Positions 29,375 to 63,916 of a stretch of 64,000 bases of DNA are shown here, in pieces. The notes under the pieces are model-generated. The model was not told the origin of the DNA and did no database searches. It was given only the letters and a program-made list of their open reading frames with translations. Position numbers and translations under genes: made by a program. This stretch comes from an uncultured Rickettsiales bacterium (GTDB lineage Bacteria > Myxococcota_A > UBA796 > UBA9615 > CAYRNR01): contig CAZLEO010000005.1 in assembly GCA_964558555.1 (NCBI GenBank), positions 10,968 to 74,967 on the forward strand, written 5' to 3'. Numbering within the stretch: position 1 is the stretch's first letter; each line of letters starts with the position of its first letter.

Positions 29375-29422
29375 GGTCCGTCTCCGCTTCACCCTGGGTT
29401 CGGACCTAGCGTAGCCGCGCTA

Positions 29423-29441
29423 TTGGACACATAATGTCCAA
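29423..29441. promoter_or_regulatory. perfect inverted repeat TTGGACA-cataa-TGTCCAA in the divergent promoter region; candidate WYL-regulator operator
   Basis: tattggacacataatgtccaaaac is a 7-bp perfect inverted repeat with a 5-nt spacer containing CATAAT. It lies between the AAA+ operon start and the WYL gene start at 29460. Confidence 0.5.
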
Positions 29442-44480: not shown

Positions 44481-44593
44481 GGTCATTCCTCCTTGGGGTA
44501 CTCGATCAAGCATCCCACGTGCCCACGAGCGGGGTCTGTACATGCCCTGATCCTCGCCAGACCCATTCTCCGCACCGGTGTTACCCTCCCCCC

Positions 44594-47053: not shown

Positions 47054-49222
47054 TCACATTCCCTCGCCGAGGATCAAGTACGCAGCGCCTGCGTGGCCGC
47101 CAGCGAGGTGGTTCCCATAGGCGCCGATCAGGATGTCTGCGCCCAGACTGCCATCGATCTCGCCCGCAGGAGAGACCGATGCTCCTGCGTACTCATCGGA
47201 CCCTGTTCCGACCAGTCGGGCGTCAGCGAAACCGAGGGCCACATCCCCGGAGATGGGGCCGTACAGCAGATAGGCGATCCCGGAGTCGTTCGCAGATGCA
47301 TCATGCAAGGGCGCTCCGACGAGAACATCCATGAAGCCGTCACCGTTGAGGTCACCTGCACTCGAAACCGAGGTTCCGGCGCCATCACCCACGGCCTCCC
47401 CTTGCAACGTGGCATCTGCTCCAGAGAGGTCGAAGGTGCCCTGGACCGGCCCGAGCACCAGATAGGCGATTCCCTCTCCAGCACCACCGGGCGCGGTCAT
47501 CGCACCAACGAGGATATCGTCGTAGCCGTCGCCGTTGGTGTCACCACCCGAGGCAACAGAACATCCCGCGAGGTCGCCCTGGCTCTCTCCCATCAGCTTG
47601 GCGTCGGCGTTGGCGAGGGCGACCTGCCCCAGTAGAGGGCCCAGGAGCAGATACGCGGCACCCGCGTAGATTCCCGCTGTTCCTTCTCCAACTGCTCCTA
47701 CCAGTACGTCGCCGAAGCCATCACCGTTGACGTCGCCGCCCGATGCCACGGAGCTGCCGGCCATATCCTCGGCAGATTCCCCCCAGAACTTGGCCGTGTA
47801 GGTCGCGCTCAGTTGCACGGCCCCTGGAGGAGGTTCAGAGAGCAGGTACACGGTCCCGGAGTCTTCGCCGCCGAAATCGCTCTGGTAGGCCCCGATCAAG
47901 AAATCTGAAGCGCCGTCACCATCTACGTCGCCGGCCGAGGCAACCGCCCGACCCGCTGAGTCTCCGGCGGCCTCGCCGATGAACTTGGTGCTGGCCTGGG
48001 ACAGGTCCAGGGTCCCCGTGATGGAGCCCAACCATAGATACGCAGCCCCTGCCTCGACTCCTCCAGTCCCCTCGCCGGGGGCGCCGACCAGCACGTCAGC
48101 GAATCCGTCGCCGTTCACATCCCCAGCGCCAGCCACGGATGTGCCCGCCTCGTCGCCGGCAGCTTCACCCACGAACTCGACACTCGCGTCATCGAGGTCC
48201 ACTACCCCCGTGACTGGTCCTCTCACCACGTAGGCTGCGCCCGCGCCAGTGCCACCGGAGCTCCCCCCCGGCGCACCGATGATGATGTCACCAAAGCCAT
48301 CGTCGTCGACGTCACCAGCCGCAGAGACGGCGAACCCTGCCCAATCATCCGCGGCCTCTCCGTACAAGTTGGCATCAGCGGCGGACAGGCTGAGCGAACC
48401 GTAGATCCCACACGTGTTGGCCGTACCATCGCAGTCGTTGTCCGCGGCGTCGCCGCAGACTTCGACACCGGATGGATTCACGTCCTCCATCTCATCGTCA
48501 CAGTCCCCGTCGCAGCTGCTGTATCCGTCTCCGTCTCCATCCGCCGGAGTCAGCGACGCGTCACCGTCGTCACAGTCCCCATCGCAGACCAGGAACCCAT
48601 CCCCGTCGGCGTCCACCTCGTCGTCGGCGATGAGGCCGTCACAGTCGTTGTCCTGGCCGTCGCAGGCCTCCTCGGCGCCGGGGTACACGCTCGAATCCGC
48701 GTCGTCGCAATCGGCGTCCGACGATTTCCAGGTCTCGGCCCAGTACGCGCCATCGCCGTCGGCATCGACCAGACCGGTTCCGGAGAGGGTGACGATATGC
48801 GCTTCCCCGGGCTCGTACCGGTGATCCGAGGAGAAGATCTCCAGGTTCGCCGTCCACACCCCCGCCCCTGGCGGGTCGAAGGTAACGGACACCGGAGACA
48901 GGACATTGATGGTGTCTGGGGGGAGAGTGAACGGGGCCTGATGCTCCACCGTGAACACGCCCTCGTCGCAGCCGGTCACCACGATGGCCAGCAGTTCCAG
49001 GGGCACTGCTCCCCTGTTCCGGATCTCCACGTCCAGGGTGGTGGGTTCATCATCACGGACGTATCCAAAGTTCAACTCGTCGTCCGCGAAGATCTCCCCG
49101 CCAGTTCCCGGATCTGTCGTGTCGTCGTCATCGGCCGAATCGTCGTCATTGCTCTCGTTGGGACATCCAATGAGCAAGAGGAGCAACCCGACAAGCGCGA
49201 TCCTCAGGGCGGTCGAAGACAT
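47054..49222 (-). CDS. FG-GAP repeat lipoprotein with N-terminal Cys-rich 'putative metal-binding motif' repeats
   Basis: MSSTALRIALVGLLLLLIGCPNESNDDDSADDDD. Repeated CDDADSSVYPGAEEACDGQDNDCDG / DGDGY..CDGDCDD units. At least six DVxGDGFxDxLxGAP FG-GAP repeats. Confidence 0.8.
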   Translation of the reverse strand: MSSTALRIALVGLLLLLIGCPNESNDDDSADDDDTTDPGTGGEIFADDELNFGYVRDDEPTTLDVEIRNRGAVPLELLAIVVTGCDEGVFTVEHQAPFTLPPDTINVLSPVSVTFDPPGAGVWTANLEIFSSDHRYEPGEAHIVTLSGTGLVDADGDGAYWAETWKSSDADCDDADSSVYPGAEEACDGQDNDCDGLIADDEVDADGDGFLVCDGDCDDGDASLTPADGDGDGYSSCDGDCDDEMEDVNPSGVEVCGDAADNDCDGTANTCGIYGSLSLSAADANLYGEAADDWAGFAVSAAGDVDDDGFGDIIIGAPGGSSGGTGAGAAYVVRGPVTGVVDLDDASVEFVGEAAGDEAGTSVAGAGDVNGDGFADVLVGAPGEGTGGVEAGAAYLWLGSITGTLDLSQASTKFIGEAAGDSAGRAVASAGDVDGDGASDFLIGAYQSDFGGEDSGTVYLLSEPPPGAVQLSATYTAKFWGESAEDMAGSSVASGGDVNGDGFGDVLVGAVGEGTAGIYAGAAYLLLGPLLGQVALANADAKLMGESQGDLAGCSVASGGDTNGDGYDDILVGAMTAPGGAGEGIAYLVLGPVQGTFDLSGADATLQGEAVGDGAGTSVSSAGDLNGDGFMDVLVGAPLHDASANDSGIAYLLYGPISGDVALGFADARLVGTGSDEYAGASVSPAGEIDGSLGADILIGAYGNHLAGGHAGAAYLILGEGM

Positions 49223-49346: not shown

Positions 49347-50603
49347 TCACTGCCAGCCGAATGCCAGGCGCACCCGGCCGCCCAGGGAGAAGAACTGACT
49401 CCGCCCTTCGGACCGCGTGGGGACGATGGCTTGCGCGCGTTCCAGAGAGCGGAAGAGCTTGCTGACGGTTCCTTGCGTGAGTCCGAGGTGACGGATCACG
49501 TCCGCTTGTCTGAACTCATCCAGTCCAGATCCCACCAGAGTTGCGAGGTGACTGATCTCGGCGTCCGAGAGAGACCCCTGGAGTTGCTCGGTGTACAAGG
49601 GCGCCAGCACGACTCGAGCTTCTTCGATGCCTAGCGGCTCGGCGCCCAGAGCCCCCAGCGCGCGAAAGCACGCCTCGTCCAGCGCGCCGAACATGCCCCT
49701 CAGGTCTCCGCGGAAGAGCCCATAGATCTCACGGACGAGCGACTCCTGGACCGGCGGGACTACCTCCCCGTCTGGGAGTCGTAGCGCATCGAGACGCTTG
49801 TGAAGCAACAGCACCAGGTCGTCCAGGGACAGGGGTTCGAGGCGAACGGGTGGTGGAAAGATGCTCCTCACCTGGGCGTGAGTGTTCAGGATCCCTCCCC
49901 GGAACCCGTCGGTCGCCCCGAGCAACACGTGTACGCCCGGCACGAGGAAATAGTCTCGCGCATCACGGAACAACATGGCCGCCTCGGAAGGGTCGTCCTC
50001 CAGGTTCTCGAGGTTGTTGAGATGCACGACGATTCCGGTGATTCCCTCCGCGAGCGCCCCTTCGACGAGCCCGGCCAGCGCGTCGTGGAACTGGCTGGGT
50101 AGAAACGCCGGGCGCTCCCGCGGCTTGCTCCCACCGAACCCGCCACCGCTGCCCAGGACGGACACGCTCCACTGAAACGCGACGCGTTCGGTCTCCTCGA
50201 CAAGCCTCCGCACCTCGCCGTACCCGGACACCGACTCGGGCTTCCCCGAGGGCAGCGAGAGACGAATGCTCCGTAGGATCCCCCTCAACATCTCCACGCC
50301 CAACATGGTAGCGGACAGATCGTGAGGAACCCTGCAATGCTGCGACGAGACGGCCATCCCGTGTTCTTCGTGCAGCCTCGCCTTGACCTGCTGGATGAAC
50401 GTCGTCTTGCCGACTCCCGGCGGCCCGGAGATCACCATCCGGCTCGAGTCGCTCCCCAGAATCCGCTTCAAGACCTGTTCGGTCTCCTCAGCCCTGCCCA
50501 CGAAGAGGTCGATCGGGCGTGTGCTCGTTGGAGACAGGTCGAGCGCTTCCTGGAAGAACGGGCTGGTCCGGATACCGAACGAATTCCAGATATTGGCGGT
50601 CAT
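49347..50603 (-). CDS. ORC/Cdc6-like (AAA_16-type) P-loop ATPase with C-terminal winged-helix
   Basis: FVGRAEETEQVLKRILGSDSSRMVISGPPGVGKTTF is Walker A. ITGIVVHLNNLENLEDD is Walker B-like. The C-terminal LGLTQGTVSKLFRSLERAQAIVPTRSEGRSQFFSL is a wHTH. GC is about 60%, against about 70% for the surroundings. Start at ATG 50603 after GGGAGGG. Confidence 0.6.
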   Translation of the reverse strand: MTANIWNSFGIRTSPFFQEALDLSPTSTRPIDLFVGRAEETEQVLKRILGSDSSRMVISGPPGVGKTTFIQQVKARLHEEHGMAVSSQHCRVPHDLSATMLGVEMLRGILRSIRLSLPSGKPESVSGYGEVRRLVEETERVAFQWSVSVLGSGGGFGGSKPRERPAFLPSQFHDALAGLVEGALAEGITGIVVHLNNLENLEDDPSEAAMLFRDARDYFLVPGVHVLLGATDGFRGGILNTHAQVRSIFPPPVRLEPLSLDDLVLLLHKRLDALRLPDGEVVPPVQESLVREIYGLFRGDLRGMFGALDEACFRALGALGAEPLGIEEARVVLAPLYTEQLQGSLSDAEISHLATLVGSGLDEFRQADVIRHLGLTQGTVSKLFRSLERAQAIVPTRSEGRSQFFSLGGRVRLAFGWQ

Positions 50604-50746
50604 CATTCCCTCCCGTCGCACTGTAACGAATATTCACTGATTCGTGAACATTCGTCAAGGCCGGTCATCGGGAATGTTCTCGCGCCGCGCTCCTAAAACC
50701 ACGACGAGCTGGACAGGGCGAGCGCGAGCAGGGATTCGCGCCGGTG

Positions 50747-53166: not shown

Positions 53167-54327
53167 ATGCGCACCATCCATGTCCCGAAGCCGTCCTCCG
53201 CCTGGCACGTACTCGTCCATGGCCATCAGGACGGCTGGCAGGCGCTGTCCGACCTGCTACGGCCACCGACGCGAACCGCTCAGGAGCGACACTATGCGCA
53301 GCTCGTCAAGGCGCTGACACGGGCTGTCGGACTGGAACACAACTCGGCCGAAGACGGGGGATGGGCCACGGTGTGGACATCCAACTCCATCGAGGGAACC
53401 GACCTTGGAGAGCAACACTGGCGGACATGGATCTCCGTGGATGACGATCAAGGTGGCGAGCGGATGTTCGGTGCGCTGCTCAGGGCGCTCGACGAGCAGG
53501 ACATCCCGTTCGACTCTGCCGCGTGCCGGGAGATGCTGCCGCCCGAGAGTCACCCCGTGCATGCTCGGTGGGGGACATGGTGCTTCGGTCCGCAGCGAGG
53601 GAGCATCAAGGCCTCGCTCCAGCCCGAGCACGGCGTAGTCGGGGTCGAAGTGGTGCGAGAAGCACCGCTCCCTTCCCTGAAGTGCCTCGCGTGCGAAGCG
53701 ACGGCGAGCCCCATCCCTCGAATCCTCGGGTACCCCAGTCCTGAAGGCGAGCTCGGTGTCCTGCTCGGAGAGCTCGTCTACGGAACGTGCGTGGTGGGTG
53801 GGCCCATGGCCACGGCCGAATGCGGCGCGTGTGGGAAGGGGCTCGTGCCGGGCTCGGCTGACGAGGAAGAAGTCGTGGGATCGGTGACCGGTGGGTTCGC
53901 CCATCAGGCTCGGGTCGAGCGGTTCAGGCGCCTGATCGTGGGAGGACGGGCGGGCACCCTGGTCTGGACGCCCTACGCCACGCAGCGCAACGGCTGGTGG
54001 ATGTTCTCCCTGAGCGCGGCCGTGAGGCAACGGCTCTCCGCTGCCTCCAACGCCGTTGTTGCTCTGAGACCTCGCGGGCTCCCGGCGCTGTTCGTTCCCT
54101 GGGCGCACATCGAGCCGATGACCGTGGACGACGAGCGCGAACGGATGGCGCTGCGCGTATCGAAGCGCGAACCCACGACGGTGAAACTCGGCAAGGCGAC
54201 GGTGGACGCCGTGACCCACCCGGAGCGACTCACACCTCCACCACCCGCCCCCACGGCGCATCGCCATGGCGCTTCGGCGCGACCCACAAGACCGGATACG
54301 GAGGTCTGCGCGTGGGAAAGTGGCTGA
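53167..54327 (+). CDS. hypothetical protein (386 aa), GC-atypical
   Basis: ATG 53167 with GAGGAG 8 nt upstream. Preceded by a 330-nt lower-GC intergenic region. The C-terminal 98 nt overlap the convergent VWA gene. Confidence 0.45.
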   Translation: MRTIHVPKPSSAWHVLVHGHQDGWQALSDLLRPPTRTAQERHYAQLVKALTRAVGLEHNSAEDGGWATVWTSNSIEGTDLGEQHWRTWISVDDDQGGERMFGALLRALDEQDIPFDSAACREMLPPESHPVHARWGTWCFGPQRGSIKASLQPEHGVVGVEVVREAPLPSLKCLACEATASPIPRILGYPSPEGELGVLLGELVYGTCVVGGPMATAECGACGKGLVPGSADEEEVVGSVTGGFAHQARVERFRRLIVGGRAGTLVWTPYATQRNGWWMFSLSAAVRQRLSAASNAVVALRPRGLPALFVPWAHIEPMTVDDERERMALRVSKREPTTVKLGKATVDAVTHPERLTPPPPAPTAHRHGASARPTRPDTEVCAWESG

Positions 54328-55516
54328 ACAGATCGGTGAGCCCCACGAACAGGTCCGGGCGGAGGCGTCGCTCGTCGAGCCACCGGAACACGGGGCGGTG
54401 GTCCGTGCCGCCACCCCCGCGGAACCGGGCGTGGCGCAAGAATGACGCGATCTCCACGTCGTCCACGGCCTGCTGCACCCTGGCGTCGGCGACGAGCAAG
54501 GTCATCTCCTCGACCTCCTGCGACAGGGCGTGCAGCTCGGCGGCGATGTCGTCGAGCAGCTCGTCAGAGATGCTGCCCGAGGTGTCCACGGCCACGACCA
54601 CGCAGCCCGCGCGCTCCGAGTGGATTCCAGGGACCAGCAGATCCTGCTCGAGGTACCGCCGGTTGGGCCGCGACAGGGCGTAGTCGTCCCGAGCGGTGGC
54701 CTGGCCGGCGTAGCTGCGGAAGAGCCGCTGCCAGGGTACGCGACGGCGACCTGCCCCCTGGATATCCCGCACCAGAGCCCCGGGCAGGTGCCCGGCCTGG
54801 TCCTGTCGCGACCAGGCCTCCACCGCCGCAGCGACGCGGCCGTGCAGCTCCTCGCGCTCGGCCGAGGAGAGCCCCCGGGGGAGGTGGACGTCGATCCCAC
54901 CGCCGTGATCGGTCACGTTGGGGACGACGACGCGGCCCGGCAGCACGGTGTTCTCGCCGCCGCCACCAGATCCGCCCGACTGGATTTCCAGCGTGAGCGT
55001 CACGCTCACCGGCTCGGGCAGCTCCTCGGCGGCGAGGTACTCGTAGATGGCCTCGGCGATCTTGCCGTCCCAGCGGGTGTCCAGGAGGATCTGGATGTCG
55101 CCAAGTCCCTCGATCTTGCCTTGAGGGGGGTCGTACAGCGCCCGGCCCGGCCGCGCCGGGTGCTGGATCTGCGACACGATCCGGTTGATGGCGTAGTCGG
55201 TGGCGCAGTTCCACAGCTGGGGGTTGCGGCCGCGCTCGCGGTCCTGGGTGGCGTAGAGCTGGTGCCCGACCTCGTGGGCGAGCACGAAGCCGAGCTGCTC
55301 GTGGCTCAGGTGCCGTGTCTTGAGCGGGTTGAACCAGATGTGACGCACGCAGTCGGTCGCCGCGATGCCCTCCAGCTCCGGGGCCGGCACCACGTGGACC
55401 TGCAGCAGCAGGTATCCCCAGAACGGGTGCATCTGGAGCATCTGCATCCGCAGCATCGACACGCGCTTCTCCTCGGCGGCGATGACGGCGTCGAGGTCGG
55501 GCGCAGCGCGGCTCAT
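54230..55516 (-). CDS. VWA-like domain protein with N-terminal putative metallopeptidase domain (DUF2201_N/DUF2201-type; MoxR-associated vWA protein)
   Basis: FVLAHEVGHQLYATQDRERGRNPQLWNCATDYAINRIV has HExxH and DxxxN motifs. The C-terminal VWA is VVVAVDTSGSISDELLD...GGGTD. ATG 55516 overlaps the MoxR stop (ATGA). Confidence 0.75.
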   Translation of the reverse strand: MSRAAPDLDAVIAAEEKRVSMLRMQMLQMHPFWGYLLLQVHVVPAPELEGIAATDCVRHIWFNPLKTRHLSHEQLGFVLAHEVGHQLYATQDRERGRNPQLWNCATDYAINRIVSQIQHPARPGRALYDPPQGKIEGLGDIQILLDTRWDGKIAEAIYEYLAAEELPEPVSVTLTLEIQSGGSGGGGENTVLPGRVVVPNVTDHGGGIDVHLPRGLSSAEREELHGRVAAAVEAWSRQDQAGHLPGALVRDIQGAGRRRVPWQRLFRSYAGQATARDDYALSRPNRRYLEQDLLVPGIHSERAGCVVVAVDTSGSISDELLDDIAAELHALSQEVEEMTLLVADARVQQAVDDVEIASFLRHARFRGGGGTDHRPVFRWLDERRLRPDLFVGLTDLFSHFPTRRPPYPVLWVAPKRHGDAPWGRVVEV

Positions 55517-56595
55517 GCGTACAGCCCTGCGTGGACACCCGCGAGCTGCGACGCCAGGGCCCGGTACTCCGGGACCCCCTTGAGCCGGGAGCGCAGCTCG
55601 GCGTCCACCTGGCGCAGGAACAGGAACACGTACTCCATGTCCAGCCCAGGCGACCGCAGGAACTTGACCACGTTGGGCAGGTCCCGGTCGCGCGCCTTGC
55701 CCTCGTGGTTGAGCCAGGCGGCCACGGCGTAGATGGCCGCGTACACGTACGAGGGCTCGGCCTTCTTGCCCTTGCGGAAGTCCTGGGCGTGGCCCTTGCG
55801 GATGATCCGCGCGGCGTTGACCCGGCGGTAGATCCGCAGGTAGCTGTCGAGCTTCTCCGCCGCCACCACCCCCACGCACGCGGCCACGGCCCGCTTGCGC
55901 AGCTCTTCGGGGCTGCGACGATAGACCTCGCTGGCCATGGCCCAGCTACGCGGCGTGGGGAACGCCATCTCGCCGTCGTTGTCGTACAGGGCCGGCTCCC
56001 CGTGGCGGCCGATGTAGGCCAGGACCGCCTCGTGGACCCCCTGCTCGGCGCCCCACTCCAGCCACGACCGCGCGTCCACGCGTAGCGTGAAATGCGCGAA
56101 GCGGTTGCACAGCGCCGAGGACAGCTGCGTGACGATGGCGTTGTCCTCTTCGAGGTTCCCCGCCGCCATCACCACCGTCCCCGGGTGGAACCGGAACGGC
56201 CCGACCCGCTTCTCCAGCACGATCTGGTAGGCCGCGGCCTGGTGCAGCCGCGTCACCGCGGCGTTGACCTCGTCGAGGAAGACCATCACCGGCTCCTCGC
56301 TGGCCTGCCGCACCCAGTCGGGCGGGAACAGCGACAGCACCTTCTTCCTGCGGTCGGGGAAGTACACTCCACCGAGCTCGGCCGGGTCCCGCTGGGCCAG
56401 CCGGATGTCCACCATCGGCAGGTCCATCTTCTCGGCCAGGCCAGCCGCGAGAGTCGACTTGCCCACTCCCGGGTGTCCCCGCAACAGCACCGAGATCCCG
56501 GCGCTCAGCGTCGCCTCGATCAGCGGCCCCAGCTCCGCGTGGGTGTACCCCTCGACGAGCTGCGGCGCGGCCTTCTTCTTCTTCCTCGCAGGCAT
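55513..56595 (-). CDS. MoxR-like AAA+ ATPase
   Basis: SVLLRGHPGVGKSTLA is Walker A and VMVFLDEVNAA is Walker B. MoxR/CbbQ-type C-terminal helical domain. ATG 56595 after AGGAGA. Confidence 0.8.
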   Translation of the reverse strand: MPARKKKKAAPQLVEGYTHAELGPLIEATLSAGISVLLRGHPGVGKSTLAAGLAEKMDLPMVDIRLAQRDPAELGGVYFPDRRKKVLSLFPPDWVRQASEEPVMVFLDEVNAAVTRLHQAAAYQIVLEKRVGPFRFHPGTVVMAAGNLEEDNAIVTQLSSALCNRFAHFTLRVDARSWLEWGAEQGVHEAVLAYIGRHGEPALYDNDGEMAFPTPRSWAMASEVYRRSPEELRKRAVAACVGVVAAEKLDSYLRIYRRVNAARIIRKGHAQDFRKGKKAEPSYVYAAIYAVAAWLNHEGKARDRDLPNVVKFLRSPGLDMEYVFLFLRQVDAELRSRLKGVPEYRALASQLAGVHAGLYA

Positions 56596-56603
56596 GGCGT
56601 CTC

Positions 56604-57212
56604 CTAGAGCATCACGTCGAGCAGCTGGTACTTCAGGTCCTCGTGCTTGAGCAGCACCGCGATCACGTGCTTGCAGTACCCCCCCGTCACGTCCTTGCGG
56701 TGTTCCGCGTCCGGGCACGTGCAGCTCGGCGGTCCCGACCAGTCCTCGAACACCCGCACCTCGTAGGGCCGGGTCCCACCTTCGAGCGCAAACACCTGCA
56801 CCCCCTCGGCCACCCCCTTCACCTCGATCCGATACCGCTTGATCACGTCGTGCGCCGCGCGCAGGAACCGCTGGTCCCGCGCACGGATGTCGATGGTCAC
56901 CTGCCTGTCCGTCATGCCCTGGCCTCCGTTTCCCAGCACGTTCACGGGCGCCCGATATCGGACCCCGTCCACCCAGACCACACCCTCGGCGCAGCGCTGG
57001 TTCAGCCACTGCGTCCACTCGACCAGCAGATACCGCTGAACGCTGGCCTGTCGGCCGAACCAGACCGACGCGTACACGTAGAAGCTGCGACTGTTCACCT
57101 CGCGCACCCGATACACCGCTCCCAGCGCCCACTTGTTCAGCGGCGAGGCTCCGGGCGAGTAGTCCGCCCGGTCGAGTACGAACACGATCATCCCGCGCTG
57201 AGGTGCCTTCAT
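56604..57212 (-). CDS. SWIM zinc-finger protein
   Basis: The C-terminus SCTCPDAEHRKDVTGGYCKHVIAVLL is a CxC...CxH SWIM finger. It is the first gene of a three-gene operon with the MoxR and VWA genes. Confidence 0.7.
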   Translation of the reverse strand: MKAPQRGMIVFVLDRADYSPGASPLNKWALGAVYRVREVNSRSFYVYASVWFGRQASVQRYLLVEWTQWLNQRCAEGVVWVDGVRYRAPVNVLGNGGQGMTDRQVTIDIRARDQRFLRAAHDVIKRYRIEVKGVAEGVQVFALEGGTRPYEVRVFEDWSGPPSCTCPDAEHRKDVTGGYCKHVIAVLLKHEDLKYQLLDVML

Positions 57213-57248
57213 CTCGCCCTCTTTCACGACTGGTTCTACCGTCTGGGC

Positions 57249-57264
57249 TGGACAGCGGTTGTCA
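57249..57264. promoter_or_regulatory. inverted repeat TGGACA-gcggt-TGTCA in the SWIM/WYL divergent promoter region; candidate operator
   Basis: ctggacagcggttgtcacc shares the GGACA-N5-TGTC core with the palindrome at 29423-29441. Confidence 0.4.
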
Positions 57265-57305
57265 CCGACAGGCCGTTCCCGCACAATCTCCCCTCGGAGG
57301 TCCCC

Positions 57306-58319
57306 ATGCCCGGTACCAAGCCCACGTACTCCGACGGCATCCAGATGGTGCAGATGCTCCAGTGGCTCGAGGCCAGCTCCAACCGTCAATTGCGGATCAA
57401 CGCCATTGCCGAGCGGATGGAGGTCCACCGCCGCACCGTGATCCGCTATGTGGACGCCCTCAACGCCTCGGTGGACAACGACCTGGGTGAGCCCATCGTC
57501 GAGCGGGTGGGCACCGGCGTGCGGGCCGTGGCCAAGCTGGGCCAGCGGGTCCAGCCCCTGTCCGCGCGCATCTTCCAGTTCGCGGCCGTCTACGCGGCCA
57601 CCCGATCACAGGAATCCGGTGGGGGTTCCCTGCTCAGCGACGCCACGGGCCCTCTCCTGGAACAGATGGAGGCTGGCTTCGAGATGAACCTCCGGCCCAT
57701 CGCCCGGCGCGTCCACGATGCATTCCACCACGTGCCGTTCGGACCCAAGGACTACCGGGCCAACCAGGACGCCCTCGACGCCGTGGTCCGCGGCGCCCTG
57801 TACCACCGGCCGGTGACGATCCGGTACCGCACCCTCGACGGATGGAAGATCACCAAGAAGATCGAGCCGTTCACCCTGCTGACCTACCGCGACGGCCTGT
57901 ACGTTCTGGCGCGACAAAAGGTGAAGAAGGGCCCGCGCATGCGGCTGTACGCGGTGGATCGCATCCTCGAGGCGGACCTGCACCGGAAAGAGGAGTTCAA
58001 GGTCCCGGCCGGCTACCGGCCCGAGGACTTCTTCCGCGGATCGCTGGGCCTGTGGCAGACCGACAAGCGCGCCCAGCGCATCCGGATCGCGTTCGACGCC
58101 GACGTGGTCGCCGTGGTCAAGGAGCGCCAGTGGCCGGGCATCGAGGGGTGGGAGGAGCTCGACGACGGGCGCTGGGCCCTGGATCTCAAGGTGCCCGTCA
58201 CCCCCGAGGTCGTCACATGGATCATCACCTGGGGCCGCGCCGCCGAGGTGCTCGCGCCCAAGACGTTGCGGCGGCGAGTGCAGGGTGAGCTGAAGGCCGC
58301 GCTGGCCCAGTACAGCTAG
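57306..58319 (+). CDS. WYL domain transcriptional regulator (wHTH-WYL-WCX, BrxR/CapW-like)
   Basis: N-terminal HTH (LRINAIAERMEVHRRTVIRYVDAL). The WYL core is HRPVTIRYRTLDGWKITKKIEPFTLLTYRDGLYVLARQ...LYAVDRI. The WCX is VTPEVVTWIITWGRAAEVLAPKTLRRRV. ATG 57306 with GGAGG 6 nt upstream. Confidence 0.85.
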   Translation: MPGTKPTYSDGIQMVQMLQWLEASSNRQLRINAIAERMEVHRRTVIRYVDALNASVDNDLGEPIVERVGTGVRAVAKLGQRVQPLSARIFQFAAVYAATRSQESGGGSLLSDATGPLLEQMEAGFEMNLRPIARRVHDAFHHVPFGPKDYRANQDALDAVVRGALYHRPVTIRYRTLDGWKITKKIEPFTLLTYRDGLYVLARQKVKKGPRMRLYAVDRILEADLHRKEEFKVPAGYRPEDFFRGSLGLWQTDKRAQRIRIAFDADVVAVVKERQWPGIEGWEELDDGRWALDLKVPVTPEVVTWIITWGRAAEVLAPKTLRRRVQGELKAALAQYS

Positions 58320-59800
58320 AAAGGGATGTCGCCGTCCGAGGCGTCATCACCAGGCGTCCACTCCCAGGTTCGCTTCGCCACCCCGCAGAGATCGCTGTCC
58401 TGGTCGAACCACGGACCGAACAGCACCAGGTACACCTCGAGACGAGCGTCCCGTGCACGCCCGACGAGCCCCTCGTCCACCCCACCGTACCCGTCGGTCA
58501 ACACCAGGATCCTCCGATACCGCTGCTCCAGCGCGTGGTCGAGGATGCAGTCGAAGTCGGTCCCGCCCGTGGTCTCGTACCTGCCCTCGGCCAGGTCCCC
58601 CAGCAGCGCCGTGGACACCTGGTTCGAGAACACGTGCACCCGGTCCCCCACGTGATCCTCCAGGGCCGTGCACAGCCGAAACAAGAAAGGCAGCTGCTCG
58701 TCCATGGACCCCGATCCGTCCACGTACAGCTGGACCCGCTGGTCGTCCTCGATCTCCTGCTCCAGCGGCGCGGTCCAGAACAGCGGCGTGCAGCCCAGGG
58801 CCAGGCTCAGCGCCTCGGACCGTCCGAGGCGGCCCACCACCCCCCGTTCCGCCGTGAGCGCCTTGCGCGTGACGGGATGATCCGGGTCGGCGTCCATGGC
58901 CAGCCGGATGGCCGCGAGCAGTGGGGCGGGATCGGGCTGGCCGTCGTCGAGCTGGAGTTCCTGCAGGCGCAGGAACTTGCCGTGGCCGCCGTGGATGCCG
59001 AAGACCTCGGACAGGATGCGGGCGTCGCCCTTCCACTGGACATCCCTCAGCTCGTGGTCGCCCAGCAGAATGGGGACATTGCCCAGGACCAGCGGGAGCT
59101 CCTCGGCCATGGCGTCGCAGAACTGCGGCCAGAACTCGGCAAACCCCTGCGAATCCAGCCAGGCGTTGAGGTACAGCTCGGCCACGGCCGATGGTCGCCG
59201 TACCCCCACGCGGTTGAGCGCGTCCTTGAGCAGCCCGTGAAGCTGGGAACGTGCGGCATAGGTCGGCCCGAAGCGGCCGGTGCGGGGGTCGACAGCGAGC
59301 AGGTCCTCGACCTCTGCGCAGCCGTGCTCCCGCAGCAGCACGATGGGCGGCAGGAGCAGCATCTCCGGGAATGCGTTGGGCCGATACAGCCGCTGCAGAT
59401 ACGGTGCCCCCTCGCCGTCGAACCACATCCGCTCCAGCTGGGCGTCCACGAACATGTCCAGGGCCAGGCCCAGCAGGGTCCTGGTGGTGAAGTCCAGGTG
59501 CACGAACCGCGACAGGTCACCGCGGACACGATGCAGGATCTCGTGGGCGAGCAGGTGCAGCGCAGAGTCGTCCTCGAGGACCTTCTCCGCCACGAACTCC
59601 GGGTCCACCTCGATCACCGCGCCACGGCTCGACGCCCTCAGCCGCGCCGAGCCCACACCGGGCGCCTCTTGCACGCGCAGGCAACCACCGTCACTGTCCA
59701 GCAACCACATCAGCAGGTTCAGCGCCCGGCGGCCGCGCGGATGATCCATCCGACGTCGCGCGGCCTGCAGCGCAGCAGGCAGGAACTCGGCAAACCTCAC
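58316..59800 (-). CDS. VWA domain protein with N-terminal HExxH metallopeptidase-like domain (second MoxR-associated vWA protein)
   Basis: LLAHEILHRV is an HExxH motif. The C-terminal VWA is LYVDGSGSMDEQL...TTGGTDF. GTG 59800 overlaps the upstream stop (GTGA) and has GAGGTG 5 nt upstream. Confidence 0.7.
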   Translation of the reverse strand: MRFAEFLPAALQAARRRMDHPRGRRALNLLMWLLDSDGGCLRVQEAPGVGSARLRASSRGAVIEVDPEFVAEKVLEDDSALHLLAHEILHRVRGDLSRFVHLDFTTRTLLGLALDMFVDAQLERMWFDGEGAPYLQRLYRPNAFPEMLLLPPIVLLREHGCAEVEDLLAVDPRTGRFGPTYAARSQLHGLLKDALNRVGVRRPSAVAELYLNAWLDSQGFAEFWPQFCDAMAEELPLVLGNVPILLGDHELRDVQWKGDARILSEVFGIHGGHGKFLRLQELQLDDGQPDPAPLLAAIRLAMDADPDHPVTRKALTAERGVVGRLGRSEALSLALGCTPLFWTAPLEQEIEDDQRVQLYVDGSGSMDEQLPFLFRLCTALEDHVGDRVHVFSNQVSTALLGDLAEGRYETTGGTDFDCILDHALEQRYRRILVLTDGYGGVDEGLVGRARDARLEVYLVLFGPWFDQDSDLCGVAKRTWEWTPGDDASDGDIPF

Positions 59801-60864
59801 GCCGTCACCTCGGGCGTCGGGAGCGCTCCGACGAGCAGCGAAGCGCCCGGCGGCTCCACGTGGGCGACGGGCGGGTTCTGCGGCAGGTAGGTCCCGCCCA
59901 CGGTCCTCGACAGCACCGCGCGCACGGCGGCGGGGTCGTCGATCACGGGGAGGTCCGTGGACAGTCGCGTCGGATCGGACAGCAACCCCGGCTCCACCAG
60001 GAAGCACGGCGGGAGGCTCTCGTCCACGTCAGCAACAACGTCGTTGCACTCCATGTGATCCGGGACACGCAGCACGAATCTCGGCCACAACTCGGCCATG
60101 GGCACGCGCCCGCGGGCCGAAGAGGAACACGCCGTACCATGCTCGTCGAACCGCCTGTAGACCGCGTCAGGCAGCCTGTCGTATGCGCTGTACCTGCGTG
60201 TGACCCCGCGATCGACGTGGATCACCTGGCTGTTGTGCCCCGATCCCACGATGAGCCACTCGCAGTAGGGGACCGTCAGATCGCCCACCGCCAGCGTCCG
60301 CTCGATGGCCACGGCCAGGGCCTCGCTGCGCGACCGGCAGTAGTACGCGTGCCCGGGCCGGTCCAGGCGCACCCAGCCGTGGTTTTCCAGGTCCAGATTG
60401 TCGGCTTCCACCAGCGGCAGCGCCGGGCCGGGCCCGCACGTGTCGCCCTTGTCGACGAACGCCTCGAGCGCGACCCGCCGCTGCGCCACGGTCGTGCGAC
60501 CACGCTGGATCTCCCGCAAGCGCTCGTCCAGCGCGCTGCTCCCCACCGGCGCCCACCGGGCCAGCAGGAAGTCGATCAACGCCGAGCGGGACGCGTACGC
60601 GATCAGACCATCGAAGCTCTCGGTGCCGTCGTCTCCTCGCAGGGACACACGGCCCGGTACCGGGTCGTACAGCCGACGACGGCGCCTGAACCTCCTCCCG
60701 CGCCGGCGACAGAGATAGCGCCCATCCGCCGCAACCGCCGAGGACTCCTCCAGCGCCCCGAACTCCTCCTCGACCGCGTGGGCGAGGGACACATCCACAC
60801 ACGCCGCCTCCAGCACGTCCACGTAGGGCCTACGCTCCCTGAGCCTGTAGCACGTGATCTTCAT
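59797..60864 (-). CDS. hypothetical protein (355 aa), middle gene of the second MoxR-VWA operon
   Basis: ATG 60864 follows AAGGAGGGGAGG and overlaps the MoxR stop (ATGA). MKITCYRLRERRPYVDVLEAAC... No recognisable domain. Confidence 0.55.
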   Translation of the reverse strand: MKITCYRLRERRPYVDVLEAACVDVSLAHAVEEEFGALEESSAVAADGRYLCRRRGRRFRRRRRLYDPVPGRVSLRGDDGTESFDGLIAYASRSALIDFLLARWAPVGSSALDERLREIQRGRTTVAQRRVALEAFVDKGDTCGPGPALPLVEADNLDLENHGWVRLDRPGHAYYCRSRSEALAVAIERTLAVGDLTVPYCEWLIVGSGHNSQVIHVDRGVTRRYSAYDRLPDAVYRRFDEHGTACSSSARGRVPMAELWPRFVLRVPDHMECNDVVADVDESLPPCFLVEPGLLSDPTRLSTDLPVIDDPAAVRAVLSRTVGGTYLPQNPPVAHVEPPGASLLVGALPTPEVTA

Positions 60865-62393
60865 GACGGCCTCCCCTCCTTGCCGGTCAGGCCTTCGCTC
60901 ACCTCGGCCCGCTTCTTCCCGGCCATGTCCACGTCCGCCCGATCGTCCACGTCCCCCACCCGGTCCCGCGACAGCTCGATGGCCGCCCGCGAGGCCAGCC
61001 AGTCCAGGTCTCCGGAGAACGCGCGCGGATCCTTCGCCACCTCCTGGGCCAGGTCCGCCACCTCGTCCCAGTCCGAGCTGTGCAGCCCGGACACCGCCCG
61101 CCACGAGTCGAAGATGCGGCTGACCACGTCCAGGGGCATCCGCGCGTGGTGCCTCGCCGCCACCTCCACCAGCCGCCTCAGCGCCGGCACCGACTCCCCC
61201 CAGCGCCGGGCGCTGACGCCGGCCTCCTCCCCCAGCGGCCGCACCACCCGGCTGACCACCTCGTGGTGGTCCTCCTCCCCGAGGTCACCGAGCGCATCCT
61301 CGTACTGCTCCACCATCTGTTCCAGCGACGTCTGAGCGAACACCGAGCACGCCGCCTGGCTCCCCGCGCCCTTCGCCCCTTCTTCCCCGGCAAAGCTCTG
61401 CTCCCACGCCGCCAGGTGCACCGGGTACAGCACCGTGCTCGGCACCGCCTCGTCCAGCGCCGGCCCCGGCAGCAGATGTCGCACACAATCGAACAGCGCG
61501 CCCTCGTCCGGCACGTCCTTGCCCCGCACCCGGTCCACCGCCATGCCCGCGGCCAGCGCGCGATACATCAACGACAGCCGCCTGCCGTCCAGGTCGATCT
61601 TCTGGGCCCTCAACAGCGCCTGGAAGCTCCTCACGTAATCCACCAGGGGCGGGCCGTACTCCTCGACCACCTCCCCCAGTACGACCCTGGACTCCTCCAC
61701 CACCCGCGCGATCCCCTCCCCCGCCTCGATCCGGTCGCCCTGCCCGTTCCAGACCTCCTTGCACCCCGGCGCGTCCGCCGCCGTCACCGTGCGGATCACC
61801 GCATCCACCTGCTGCGCGGTCATGTCCTTCACCGTCGGCATCGTCACGATGTAGGCGAACCGCCCCACCAGCGCCGGGTCCAGCGTCCTCGCCCCCAGGT
61901 AGCCGGGGGGGTTCATCGCCCCGAACACCATCTTCAGCGACTCCACCGCCTGCCCCATCACCCGCCGCGATCGGACGACCTCCAGCCACTTGTTCTGCAT
62001 CGCAGGTGCGGCACGCGACAGTTCGTCCACCAGCACGAACTCGACACCCCAGATGGAGATCTCGGTGGGGACGTAGCCGAGCTTGCCCTCGCCGAGATCC
62101 CGAGGGTTCGGGAAGCCGATGATGTCCTCGAACAGCGCCTTGGACGCGTCGTACGCGCGGAAGCGCATCGCCAGGGCGTCGGCAAGGGCCTCGGCCATCG
62201 CGGTCTTGGCGGTACCGTGCGCGCCCACCAGCAAGAGCGGATCGCCCGTGACCAGCGACGCCAGCACGGGCGTGGCAATGGTCTCCATCCCGTACAGGCC
62301 GACGGCCTCCAGGGGATCACGGCGGATACGCTCGGAAAGGGACTGTGACACGGGGGCCACGGCCACGGGCGCCGTTGCGGTGTCCTCGAACAT
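60861..62393 (-). CDS. MoxR-like AAA+ ATPase with long C-terminal extension (510 aa)
   Basis: PLLLVGAHGTAKTAMAEALA is Walker A and VEFVLVDELSRAAPAMQNKWLEVV is Walker B. AAA_3/5-like. Confidence 0.75.
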   Translation of the reverse strand: MFEDTATAPVAVAPVSQSLSERIRRDPLEAVGLYGMETIATPVLASLVTGDPLLLVGAHGTAKTAMAEALADALAMRFRAYDASKALFEDIIGFPNPRDLGEGKLGYVPTEISIWGVEFVLVDELSRAAPAMQNKWLEVVRSRRVMGQAVESLKMVFGAMNPPGYLGARTLDPALVGRFAYIVTMPTVKDMTAQQVDAVIRTVTAADAPGCKEVWNGQGDRIEAGEGIARVVEESRVVLGEVVEEYGPPLVDYVRSFQALLRAQKIDLDGRRLSLMYRALAAGMAVDRVRGKDVPDEGALFDCVRHLLPGPALDEAVPSTVLYPVHLAAWEQSFAGEEGAKGAGSQAACSVFAQTSLEQMVEQYEDALGDLGEEDHHEVVSRVVRPLGEEAGVSARRWGESVPALRRLVEVAARHHARMPLDVVSRIFDSWRAVSGLHSSDWDEVADLAQEVAKDPRAFSGDLDWLASRAAIELSRDRVGDVDDRADVDMAGKKRAEVSEGLTGKEGRPS

Positions 62394-62502
62394 GACTCAC
62401 CTCCATGAGATGGGGTGAGTGTAGGGGTGGGGCTGGACAGGGGTTGTCCAGGAAGAGCCGGAAGGTTCGTGTAGGATTCACGAACACGAGGGAGCCGAGC
62501 CC

Positions 62503-63006
62503 ATGCGATATGTCTTCGTCCGCCACGGCCTCTACAAGTACGAAGGGATGCCCGATTCCGAGAAGGACGACAAGGCGCTGGAACCCCACGGGGTGAAGGG
62601 CGCACTCGGAGCGGCGGACTACCTCGCAGGCGAGCACATCGTGCCCGACCTCATCCTCGTGACCCTCAAGCGACGCACGGCCCACACCGCCGAGATCATC
62701 CGCGACGCGCTTCAGCTGCCGGACGTGCCCCTCCATCGCACGAGGTCCGGGCACAGAGGCCGCAAGACCGTTCCCAGGAAGCTCGAGGAGTGGATCGACC
62801 ATCACGACATCGGCGAGTCGCAGACCCTGATGTTCGTCGGCCACGGCAACAGCCAGAACGCCCTGCGGTCCTTCTTCGACGAGGGCGCCAAGCCCCCATC
62901 CGACGGGGTCAGTCACTGCGCCGTGCTGATCCTGGACGTCCGCGGGCGCGGCAAGGAGATGCAGATCCGCGGCAAGACGTTCGATTCCGGGCTACCCGTC
63001 CCCTGA
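62503..63006 (+). CDS. histidine phosphatase family protein (SixA/phosphoglycerate-mutase-like)
   Basis: MRYVFVRHG has the RHG motif. ...LMFVGHGNSQNAL contains the second His. Confidence 0.65.
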   Translation: MRYVFVRHGLYKYEGMPDSEKDDKALEPHGVKGALGAADYLAGEHIVPDLILVTLKRRTAHTAEIIRDALQLPDVPLHRTRSGHRGRKTVPRKLEEWIDHHDIGESQTLMFVGHGNSQNALRSFFDEGAKPPSDGVSHCAVLILDVRGRGKEMQIRGKTFDSGLPVP

Positions 63007-63016
63007 CACCCCGCCC

Positions 63017-63916
63017 CTAGGAATCCTTGCTGGAGCTTGCCTCGCCATTCTCTCCGGCTGCCTTCCTCGCCTTCTGCCTGATCTGGTACATCTGCAGCGC
63101 CAGCCCACCCGCGAAGTACTCCAGCCACTCCGTGTAGTCCCCCGTCCGGTCCGCAGTGCGCAGCGTGGCGTAGTAGTTGTCTCGATTCTTGTTGTAGTAG
63201 CTCGCCAGGTCGAACAGGTACTTGTAGTCGTACCCGCGCTGGTACAACAACGCTGTCGTGAGCATCCTCGCGGTCCGGCCGTTGCCGTCGACGAAGGGAT
63301 GGATCCACACGAGGCGGTGCTGCAAGATCCCCGCGACCAGCACCGGGTGCGTCCAGCCGTCGACGACCCCCCGGCGGACCTGCGCCGGCGTCGGCTTGTG
63401 CTTGCAGCCATCGACCCAATCGAGCAGCTCGCGCAGCTCGTCCTCGACCCGGCCCCAGGGTGGCGGCTGGTGGTGGACGACCGTCTCCTCGCCCTGCACA
63501 TCCCCTACACACACGTCTTCGCGTCGGATCTGGCCGGCGAAGCGGTCCCCGCCACGGACGCCCTCTACCAGGCGACGATGGATATCCCGGAGATCACTGA
63601 TCCGGAACGTGTACTCGCGCGCACCGCGGAGATCCTCGATGGCGCCGAAAACACCGAGGTAGTTCAGGAACTCCTTCTCCGAGTCACGCAGCTCCCGTTC
63701 TCTCGGCTCCTTGATCAGCTCGAACGCCATCTCCAGCGTCAGGGAGTTCCCCTCGATCTGCACGCTCGCAAGGGCGTCCTCGACCCGCACGGCCTGGCGT
63801 AGCTCACCGACCCATTCGGGCCGCATGCGTACGGCCGAGAGCATGCCGCGGGTGCGTTCGATCGCGACCAGCTGGCGCTGGATGCGGGGAGTCAGTCGAT
63901 AGGTGGGTTCGAACAT
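63017..63916 (-). CDS. Fic/DOC family protein (Fido domain)
   Basis: HPFVDGNGRTARML matches the Fic motif HPFx[D/E]GNGRxxR. 299 aa. Confidence 0.85.
   Translation of the reverse strand: MFEPTYRLTPRIQRQLVAIERTRGMLSAVRMRPEWVGELRQAVRVEDALASVQIEGNSLTLEMAFELIKEPRERELRDSEKEFLNYLGVFGAIEDLRGAREYTFRISDLRDIHRRLVEGVRGGDRFAGQIRREDVCVGDVQGEETVVHHQPPPWGRVEDELRELLDWVDGCKHKPTPAQVRRGVVDGWTHPVLVAGILQHRLVWIHPFVDGNGRTARMLTTALLYQRGYDYKYLFDLASYYNKNRDNYYATLRTADRTGDYTEWLEYFAGGLALQMYQIRQKARKAAGENGEASSSKDS

Follow-up and report, generated by a model that had tools for sequence, protein, structure and literature searches.

Does a protein of no annotated family, encoded between a MoxR ATPase and a VWA-domain protein, belong to the same system as its two neighbours, and if so, what could the three proteins do together? 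The question is raised by a 64,000-nucleotide stretch of contig CAZLEO010000005.1 (positions 10,968 to 74,967, from an assembly labelled as an uncultured Rickettsiales bacterium), which we call the window and which has a G+C content of ~70%. Three genes on its minus strand, A, B and C, form what we refer to as the trio, which lies next to the gene for a WYL-domain regulator and, beyond it, to a second MoxR-VWA operon (system 1). As argued below from comparative sequence analysis, the three overlapping genes make up a genuine operon that is widely conserved, B is a real protein family without known relatives, and the same operator precedes both the trio and system 1, which points to a single WYL regulon. 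The genes in question are the following.

60861-62393, minus strand: gene A, MoxR-family AAA+ ATPase, 510 residues, ATG start (open reading frame and Pfam)
59797-60864, minus strand: gene B, protein of no annotated family, 355 residues, ATG start (open reading frame)
58316-59800, minus strand: gene C, zincin-like HExxH and VWA protein, 494 residues, GTG start (open reading frame)
57306-58319, plus strand: WYL regulator, 337 residues, HTH_11, WYL and WCX domains, convergent with C (Pfam, all three domains above the cut-off)
54230-57212, minus strand: system 1 operon (Pfam)

Gene organization of the trio

An earlier, sequence-only reading of the window had described a MoxR gene, a middle gene and a gene for a VWA protein with an HExxH motif, joined by 4-nt start/stop overlaps with Shine-Dalgarno sequences, and had placed them beside another MoxR-VWA system, with a WYL gene in between that converges on the VWA gene with a further 4-nt overlap. 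This description holds in all its parts. The three open reading frames (ORFs) are present at the coordinates listed above; ATGA (60861-60864) serves as A stop and B start and GTGA (59797-59800) as B stop and C start, both 4-nt overlaps being read directly in the sequence, and a Shine-Dalgarno sequence precedes each start (GGAGGTGA 4 nt before A, AGGAGG 9 nt before B and GAGGTGA 4 nt before C). The Pfam domains confirm the second MoxR-VWA system and the intervening WYL gene, which ends in the palindrome CTAG (58316-58319). The overlap of the WYL gene with C is real, because CTAG holds both stop codons. Pfam AAA_5 and bpMoxR are both above their cut-offs for the MoxR ATPase, and the third protein has a conserved HExxH, a metal-ion-dependent adhesion site (MIDAS) and a VWA fold that matches those of CLCA1, MDN1 and TFIIH p44. 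From the 4-nt overlaps we infer that A, B and C are translationally coupled, and no intrinsic terminator is predicted anywhere in 57000-62700.

The start of B differs in the public gene call of identical sequence (P0001, 341 residues), which begins at an internal GTG 14 codons downstream of the ATG. The N-terminus, MK(I/T)..., is kept in all B homologues, which supports the ATG at 60864 as the real start.

Conservation of the trio

The loci used for comparison (L numbers) were contigs with B or C homologues, plus 20 from named metagenome-assembled genomes (MAGs) retrieved in a C-based scan, and A, B and C were recognised in them with local profile hidden Markov models. Seventeen independent loci have the order A-B-C (the window, L002, L005, L007, L009, L010, L012-L019, L021, L022 and L032), and wherever there is enough flanking DNA B lies between A and C, at identities down to 25-30%. 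The A/B overlap is 4 nt long in 15 of the 17 loci and the B/C overlap in 14. A distant B that only the profile search recovered (P0100) is flanked by gene fragments that are A-like upstream and C-like downstream. The MAG labels of the trio loci are Myxococcales, Deltaproteobacteria, Planctomycetota, Oligoflexia and Proteobacteria, besides two, Rickettsiales and Enterobacterales, that are doubtful automated assignments. B is always the least conserved of the three with respect to the window proteins, the identities to A, B and C being 84, 68 and 82% in L002, 46, 35 and 46% in L010, and 37, 28 and 34% in L013.

Paralogous trios are paired in the MAGs JACRCX01 (L014 and L015), CAIZWN01 (L018 and L019) and CAZYLP01 (L016 and L020). 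In L015 (261-3866) there is also a second B-like gene (~917-2062), which overlaps an upstream 219-residue, non-A-like ORF by 4 nt and is followed by AbiEi/AbiEii toxin-antitoxin genes, and then by an operator and a complete trio; this gene is either the remnant of another trio or a B in a different context.

Two-gene A-C or C-A pairs without B are present in L023-L030 (Elusimicrobia, Zixibacteria and Planctomycetota). Among 80 loci, B was found on no viral contig, though five such contigs carry A/C pairs: on L034-L038, IMG/VR contigs of 100-190 kb, a bpMoxR-like ATPase is paired with a zincin-VWA protein in two-gene units that lack B, and these pairs match PHROG 1314. Since the distant pairs lack B, the trio is probably a distinct sub-branch of a wider bpMoxR-like and zincin-VWA family, in which the third gene was acquired.

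The middle protein, B

The middle protein had been described as having no recognisable domain, and B indeed has no match in Pfam, NCBIfam, PADLOC or PHROGs; no Pfam family was matched consistently by 60 diverse family members. The remote-homology and structure searches that had been proposed for 59797..60864 were run and gave no relative. The B profile reached a best E-value of 0.045 against PDB sequences, to GH3 enzymes, which was judged a chance match, and the AlphaFold2 model gave no fold match with Foldseek in the PDB (best E-value 0.3) or in BFVD (best E-value 0.17). PafBC and BrxR appeared among the low-ranked Foldseek matches, with a TM-score of ~0.09, and were discarded as fold relatives, such matches not being meaningful. 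Alignment of the B profile with those of A, C, the WYL protein and the DUF2201 proteins by hhalign showed no relationship (all probabilities <1%), so that B is not derived from a partner gene. A pattern from a small B alignment, scanned over genome contigs, gave no confirmed match.

Relatives of B itself were retrieved at two depths. A word-indexed search of 5.8 billion clustered proteins gave 6 relatives by single sequence and 8 further ones by profile, and an exhaustive profile search of 1.84 billion representatives gave 174 clusters (counted at 50% identity) with E ≤ 1e-3, including 107 with E ≤ 1e-10, almost all of them 340-380 residues long. The AlphaFold2 model (predicted local distance difference test, pLDDT, 72) has a mixed, beta-hairpin-rich fold, with a disordered Arg-rich loop at residues 32-64. 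What the 60 members conserve at a level of 60% or more consists almost entirely of Gly, Pro, Leu or hydrophobic residues; D297 (53/60) and R320 (52/60) are among the few polar exceptions. The conservation profile of these members contains no constellation of catalytic-type residues. The family is marked by its conserved N-terminus and by the motifs FLLRVP and LPVIDDP...RT..G.YLP.

Could B nevertheless be a spurious or lineage-specific ORF, the real unit being a two-gene MoxR-VWA pair? Long spurious ORFs are common in a genome of ~70% GC, and one public annotation picked another start. Against this stand the number and uniform length of the B clusters, the conservation of the protein sequence at identities as low as 25%, in every case with A and C on either side, and the conserved N-terminal and internal motifs. 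The conservation data rule this explanation out, and we give it practically no weight. The sequence-only reading had tied the reality of B to its conservation with the MoxR/VWA pair in other genomes, and B is the middle gene in 17 of 17 loci. Its suggestion that B is the system-specific third component also fits, as B is absent from the distant two-gene A/C pairs, is the fastest-evolving of the three and lacks catalytic-type residues.

The MoxR ATPase and the zincin-VWA protein

Judged from its sequence, A is a bpMoxR-type MoxR AAA+ ATPase whose ATPase motifs are intact and whose P-loop has the unusual form GxxGxAKT. It matches Pfam AAA_5 (E-value 1.2e-7) and bpMoxR (30.4 bits, cut-off 27), and AAA_3 is above its cut-off too. 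Its nearest solved relatives in a PDB sequence search are midasin and the MoxR-like entry 2r44. The motifs are a Walker A GAHGTAKT, a Walker B VLVDE, a sensor-1 AMNP and an arginine finger in GRF. All 16 loci compared keep the last three of these, and 15 of them have the variant Walker A, with Ala replacing the Gly before Lys. The Pfam family bpMoxR represents the MoxR domain of the MoxR-vWA-beta-propeller ternary systems (Kaur et al. 2020, eLife 9:e52696), and a GxxxTAK[ST] variant of the P-loop, the form seen in A, was reported in the same work for the MoxR proteins of the FtsH and beta-propeller ternary systems.

C alone has no Pfam match above the cut-off, DUF2201 reaching 12.4 bits against a threshold of 26.4 and DUF2201_N giving no match. 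In an alignment of 15 homologues (34-88% identity), H86-E87-x-x-H90 is invariant, together with V92, G94 and D115, and the MIDAS is complete (D361-x-S363-G-S365, T411/T414-D415 and D436). The HExxH is N-terminal and the VWA domain C-terminal, at residues ~355-485 of 494. The AlphaFold model (pLDDT 74.6) ends in an alpha/beta, Rossmann-like region with no propeller, and its best Foldseek match is to the VWA domain of CLCA1 (E-value 3e-4), with the MDN1 MIDAS and TFIIH p44 domains also matched. Sub-threshold Pfam matches among the 15 members are to VWA_CoxE (9/15), DUF2201 (8/15) and DUF2201_N (5/15), and a distant two-gene relative of C (L030) passes the DUF2201_N gathering score. PHROG 1314 is matched both by C (E-value 8e-9) and, over its full length, by the system-1 DUF2201 protein (1.7e-66). 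This makes C a divergent relative of the system-1 protein, belonging by sequence to the same superfamily as DUF2201_N/DUF2201 without being a member by the Pfam criterion, since its scores are under threshold. PHROG 1314 carries the label 'HNH endonuclease', which looks like a mis-annotation in view of the HExxH and MIDAS content. We found no publication on DUF2201 proteins.

A shared operator upstream of the two MoxR-VWA operons

Alignment of the regions upstream of A revealed a palindrome, of which further copies were then located in the window. The sites and the promoter elements next to them are listed here.

62433-62451, minus strand: operator, perfect 19-bp palindrome CTGGACAACCCCTGTCCAG (CTGGACA-N5-TGTCCAG), upstream of A
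62418-62423, minus strand: -10-like TACACT, exactly 9 nt downstream of the palindrome and ~25 nt before the A start (read in the sequence)
57248-57265, minus strand: second operator, GTGACAACCGCTGTCCAG, near-identical, between the WYL and SWIM genes and facing the SWIM operon
57233-57238, minus strand: TAGAAC, 9 nt after the second operator
57259-57264 and 57282-57287, plus strand: sigma-70-like promoter of the WYL gene, with -35 TTGTCA, a 17-nt spacer and -10 CACAAT
29424-29440: third operator-type palindrome, TGGACACATAATGTCCA, whose minus-strand TGTCCAA-N9-TACGCT faces a tandem-AAA+ gene

The core GACA-N5-TGTCCA occurs at 3 sites in the window, against 0.13 expected from shuffles, and the layout GACA-N5-TGTCC-N11-TAnnnY was found at ~18 promoter instances across the loci, the 9-nt spacing between palindrome and TAnnnY being exact in every operator-bearing promoter listed. 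The operator precedes the trio in the window/L031, L002/L003, L005, L007 and L032, as well as in the distant L015 and L021, and it precedes the SWIM operon of system 1 in the window/L031, L001, L005, L007 and L032. It also precedes a conserved protein of 177-182 residues in L001, L005 and L032 and, in L032, both a PTP and ADP-ribosylglycohydrolase gene and a tandem-AAA+ gene. The promoter of the WYL gene is the region's only predicted sigma-70-like one; 19 nt separate its end from the WYL start, and its -35 element is a half-site of the operator at 57.25 kb, an arrangement kept in related loci. Autoregulation of the WYL gene is suggested by this position of its -35 within the second operator.

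The clearest picture of the putative regulon is given by L032 (694-18046), where five operator-N9-TAnnnY promoters lie within ~17 kb. They precede a 179-residue protein, the PTP and ADP-ribosylglycohydrolase gene, the trio, the SWIM-AAA-DUF2201 operon, and a WHD and tandem-AAA+ protein. The protein of 177-182 residues, always with the operator upstream (L001 8342-8890, minus strand; L005 1656-2189, minus strand; L032 749-1288, plus strand), is 48-62% identical between loci, has one weak match to the winged helix DUF6293_C, and is absent from the window.

The WYL regulator

Among solved structures the WYL protein comes closest by sequence to DriD (8tp8/9pfq, E-value 0.01, full-length alignment), followed by PafC; its PDB sequence matches at E ≤ 1 include neither BrxR nor CapW. 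In the alignment with DriD, Y192, R204 and an aromatic residue at W206 are kept. The 4-nt convergent overlap with C is also present in L001 and L005, and a 168-nt gap is found in L007. The WYL gene remains with the trio where system 1 is degraded (L007/L008) or absent (L010, L012 and L016), and the operator persists in at least two distant loci with no WYL gene in the flanking DNA retrieved (L015 and L021).

DriD binds a 7-N7-7 pseudo-palindrome that covers the -35 position, with a constant spacing to the -10, in promoters without a -35 box, and activates the operon divergent from its own gene when switched on by single-stranded DNA (ssDNA) (PMC13004042, PMC10853764). SiwR, which likewise responds to ssDNA, binds a 19-bp imperfect palindrome located between the -35 and the -10 of the divergent operon next to it (PMC10693628). 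The mycobacterial RecA-NDp motif resembles TGTC-N12-TAnnnT, a likeness that is given no weight here. By analogy, the promoter layout described here matches that of WYL activators such as DriD and SiwR. The regulator shares with DriD of Caulobacter, SiwR and the mycobacterial PafBC the HTH-WYL-WCX architecture (HTH, helix-turn-helix), a palindrome over the -35 position with constant spacing to the -10, a position divergent from a target operon, and a DNA-polymerase gene behind the same operator type. It differs from DriD in its putative operator, which is 7-N5-7 with a GC-rich spacer instead of 7-N7-7, and the similarity between the two proteins is weak at the E-value given above; it differs from all three in that its putative targets are MoxR-VWA operons.

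System 1 and other genes around the trio

The genes of system 1, and those that are linked to the operator or adjoin the trio, are as follows.

56604-57212, minus strand: SWIM zinc-finger protein of system 1 (Pfam)
55513-56592, minus strand: AAA/AAA_5 ATPase of system 1, 359 residues (Pfam)
54230-55516, minus strand: DUF2201_N and DUF2201 zincin-VWA protein of system 1 (Pfam)
27236-29392, minus strand: tandem-AAA+ ATPase, probable regulon member (Pfam)
24363 to ~27242, minus strand: PHP/DNA-polymerase-III-alpha (DnaE-like) protein, directly after the tandem-AAA+ gene (Pfam)
29460-30389, plus strand: second WYL-like gene, with no Pfam match, 24% identical to the first and divergent from the tandem-AAA+ gene
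62503-63006, plus strand: histidine-phosphatase-like gene, divergent from A and sharing the operator-containing intergenic region (Pfam His_Phos_1, 9e-6)
63017-63916, minus strand: Fic-domain protein with the motif HPFVDGNGRTAR (Pfam Fic, 1e-18)

The arrangement of system 1 recurs in L001, L005, L031 and L032. The tandem-AAA+/DnaE-like operon (24363-29392) is a probable member of the regulon, and a comparable operator-bearing double-AAA+ gene follows system 1 in L032. The second WYL-like gene and the third palindrome look like a paralogous regulator/operator pair, which possibly cross-talks with the trio regulon.

An orthologue of the histidine-phosphatase-like gene occupies the same position in L002. 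Orthologues of the Fic gene (62-76% identity, with intact HPFxDGNGRxxR) adjoin the trio/WYL module in four different arrangements, and none of the trio-linked Fic genes has an operator copy of its own; elsewhere they lie at 5360-6250 in L010, 6412-7260 in L032 and 1427-2326 in L031. Among the other flanking genes are AddAB/UvrD-like helicase-nucleases (L005 and L032), an MmeI-type methylase/restriction enzyme (L032), AbiEi/AbiEii directly upstream of the trio (L015), and arsenic, redox and cytochrome genes (L009). The context is thus mixed, as defence and DNA-repair genes are present in some loci only and do not make up a consistent defence island.

Further away in the window, a 424-residue protein (49347-50621, minus strand) combines an AAA_16/STAND-like P-loop with a C-terminal MarR-like winged helix, an ORC/Cdc6-like architecture, and the ORFs at 50.8-54.4 kb have no Pfam matches. 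Two predicted secreted or lipoproteins (47054-49222 and 43524-44543, both minus strand) have long Asp-rich linkers, and the one of 722 residues contains repeats that, judged by eye, resemble FG-GAP/integrin-alpha; these proteins suggest a myxobacteria-like or deltaproteobacterial lifestyle.

Proposed mechanism and alternatives

We propose that the trio is a WYL-induced, ATP-gated protease module, encoded in one coupled operon, in which B acts as adaptor or sensor, and we consider this package, taken as a whole, somewhat favoured. The WYL dimer would bind the 19-bp palindrome, which stands in the place of a -35 box and keeps a constant 9 nt to the -10. One regulon would take in the trio, the SWIM-AAA-DUF2201 operon and the other genes, since the same operator precedes them. 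If DriD, SiwR and PafBC are taken as a guide, the regulator may, through its WYL domain, sense a nucleic-acid signal, most likely ssDNA from damage or from invading DNA, and the signal-bound protein would then activate transcription, activation appearing the better choice over repression. A, B and C would be produced together. C would be the output, a zincin-type HExxH peptidase whose VWA MIDAS may grip an acidic peptide that belongs either to B or to a client which B presents. A hexamer of the MoxR ATPase A would remodel the C/B complex with ATP, gating the peptidase or delivering substrate, as in characterised MoxR-VWA pairs, and B would be the specificity subunit, as adaptor, sensor or first substrate. 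What the sequences show is the gene structure, the domain identities, the conserved A-B-C order and the shared operator with its fixed spacing; the WYL binding, the activation, the nature of the ligand, the contacts between the proteins and proteolysis as the output are what we infer.

Several points weigh against this proposal. Each step of the mechanism draws on sequence, models and analogy, and all trio loci are metagenome-derived. Some WYL regulators, such as BrxR and CapW, are repressors. In the WYL protein A216 aligns with R207, a DriD arginine in contact with ssDNA, so that one contact arginine is missing, and about half of the distant trio loci have no WYL gene in the flanking DNA that was retrieved for them. 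As for the peptidase, C stays under the Pfam gathering scores, and hhalign of C with the system-1 DUF2201 protein aligns the MIDAS region only, with a probability of 58-73%.

The same genes could instead be an anti-phage or abortive-infection system of the type proposed by Kaur et al., silenced until infection by a WYL repressor of the BrxR/CapW type, in which B would sense a phage component and the MoxR-VWA pair would unleash the peptidase, with death or arrest of the cell as the result. An action against invaders has been proposed for MoxR-vWA ternary systems that have a vWA-fused peptidase and a variable 'sensor' (Kaur et al. 2020), and BrxR-family WYL regulators are reported to co-localise with defence islands (PMC9122601). 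In the trio, B is the component that evolves fastest, several MAGs have at least two paralogous trios, and there are neighbours of the defence type, namely the MmeI-like enzyme and Fic in L032 and AbiEi/AbiEii in L015. However, in PADLOC-DB v2 no model matches B or C, and A has only weak matches, at the level of the P-loop, to IetA and mad8; the neighbourhoods are not consistently defence islands, as the arsenic, redox and cytochrome genes of L009 illustrate. The operator at the -35 with its fixed spacing to the -10 resembles activator-type WYL promoters, neither BrxR nor CapW is found among the PDB sequence matches of the regulator, and the presence of the same operator type before the DnaE-like polymerase operon fits a DNA-damage response. 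This is the main alternative, with a molecular core in common with our proposal, and we regard the defence function as unlikely, without being far-fetched.

A housekeeping role, as a maturation chaperone like CoxD/CoxE/CoxF, NorQ/NorD, CbbQ/CbbO or RavA/ViaA that would insert a cofactor into a client or assemble it, with B as assembly factor, has in its favour that all characterised MoxR-VWA pairs are ATP-dependent remodelling or assembly machines, and that VWA_CoxE is weakly matched among C members. No client enzyme is conserved beside the trio, the flanking genes differing among loci, and the invariant HExxH indicates a hydrolytic output over pure chaperoning; it is the lack of a conserved client gene together with the invariant peptidase motif that makes this role less likely. 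The stress-type WYL operator, the multiple paralogues per genome and the two-gene relatives in phages also speak against it, and we hold it to be very improbable.

Comparison with known systems

The trio resembles the ternary systems of Kaur et al. (2020) in having three components around a MoxR ATPase and a vWA protein, in the bpMoxR-scoring ATPase with its GxxxTAK[ST] P-loop, in carrying the presumed effector, here a peptidase, on the vWA protein, and in a variable third component with no recognised fold. The lineages also overlap (Planctomycetes, Proteobacteria and myxobacteria). It departs from the beta-propeller systems (subsystem 4), because in C the vWA domain is the C-terminal end of the protein and no propeller follows it, and the 355-residue B has no TPR, beta-propeller or transmembrane region and no Pfam repeat matches. 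It departs as well from subsystems 1 and 2, in that B is neither VMAP nor iSTAND, its moderate-confidence model being dominated by beta-hairpins and not by a P-loop alpha/beta core, and it is not FtsH either. The peptidase of the trio is an N-terminal DUF2201_N-like zincin, whereas those described by Kaur et al. are mainly caspase-like or trypsin-like, with a metallopeptidase 'on rare occasions', and a link to a WYL regulator with a shared operator was not part of their description. In our view, and going by sequence features, the trio would be an undescribed variant of the MoxR-vWA ternary systems, outside the defining features of each described subsystem. A literature search, with the supplementary tables of Kaur et al. 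outside its range, found no publication on the trio.

With the AAA_5 and DUF2201_N/DUF2201 pairs (PF13203 and PF09967; PHROG 1314), of which system 1 is an example, the trio shares the overlapping genes for a MoxR-like ATPase and an HExxH...D/MIDAS protein. System 1 has the same PHROG for its zincin-VWA protein and the same operator. The differences are that C is ~65 residues longer and under the Pfam gathering scores, that A comes from another MoxR clade (bpMoxR-like, 510 residues, against 359 residues in system 1), and that the additional gene is B in the trio but one for a SWIM protein in system 1.

A more distant likeness is with eukaryotic DNA-protein crosslink repair, in which the AAA+ unfoldase Cdc48/p97 works with the HExxH metalloproteases Wss1/SPRTN. 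As that machinery is generally described, the likeness consists in an AAA+ protein acting with an HExxH protein, and the operator-marked set here includes a tandem-AAA+ ATPase and a DnaE-like polymerase. The likeness of the regulator to DriD, and the fact that this operator type also precedes the DnaE-like polymerase and tandem-AAA+ genes, suggest a speculative and quite improbable extension, namely that the whole set is a bacterial, ssDNA-triggered protein-removal regulon analogous to Cdc48-Wss1/SPRTN. It may comprise the two MoxR-VWA-zincin operons, the tandem-AAA+ protein, the DnaE-like polymerase, the PTP/ADP-ribosylglycohydrolase and the small winged-helix-like protein. B may then recognise a DNA-trapped or crosslinked protein or a stalled complex, which the MIDAS would grip, MoxR unfold and the HExxH peptidase degrade. 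MoxR is not Cdc48, and the likeness is drawn at the level of components, not of sequence or fold; no DNA-binding domain was recognised in A, B or C, the SWIM finger belonging to system 1.

Significance

MoxR-VWA pairs are very common, few of them have a known job, and the proposed ternary conflict systems rest almost wholly on comparative genomics. To these the trio adds a clearly delimited family of third components that is annotated nowhere, and a zincin peptidase as the vWA-linked output. We consider the operator and the regulon link to be the most useful new element, as a 19-bp operator at a fixed promoter position of two MoxR-VWA operons and of other genes is an unusual regulatory handle, and its motif offers a route to definition of the regulon by scanning. 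The operator could help to place the DUF2201-type VWA-metallopeptidases in the DNA-damage response or in phage defence, and the protein-removal idea, if true, would mean a protease pathway for DNA-protein crosslinks or stalled complexes under the control of a WYL damage sensor.

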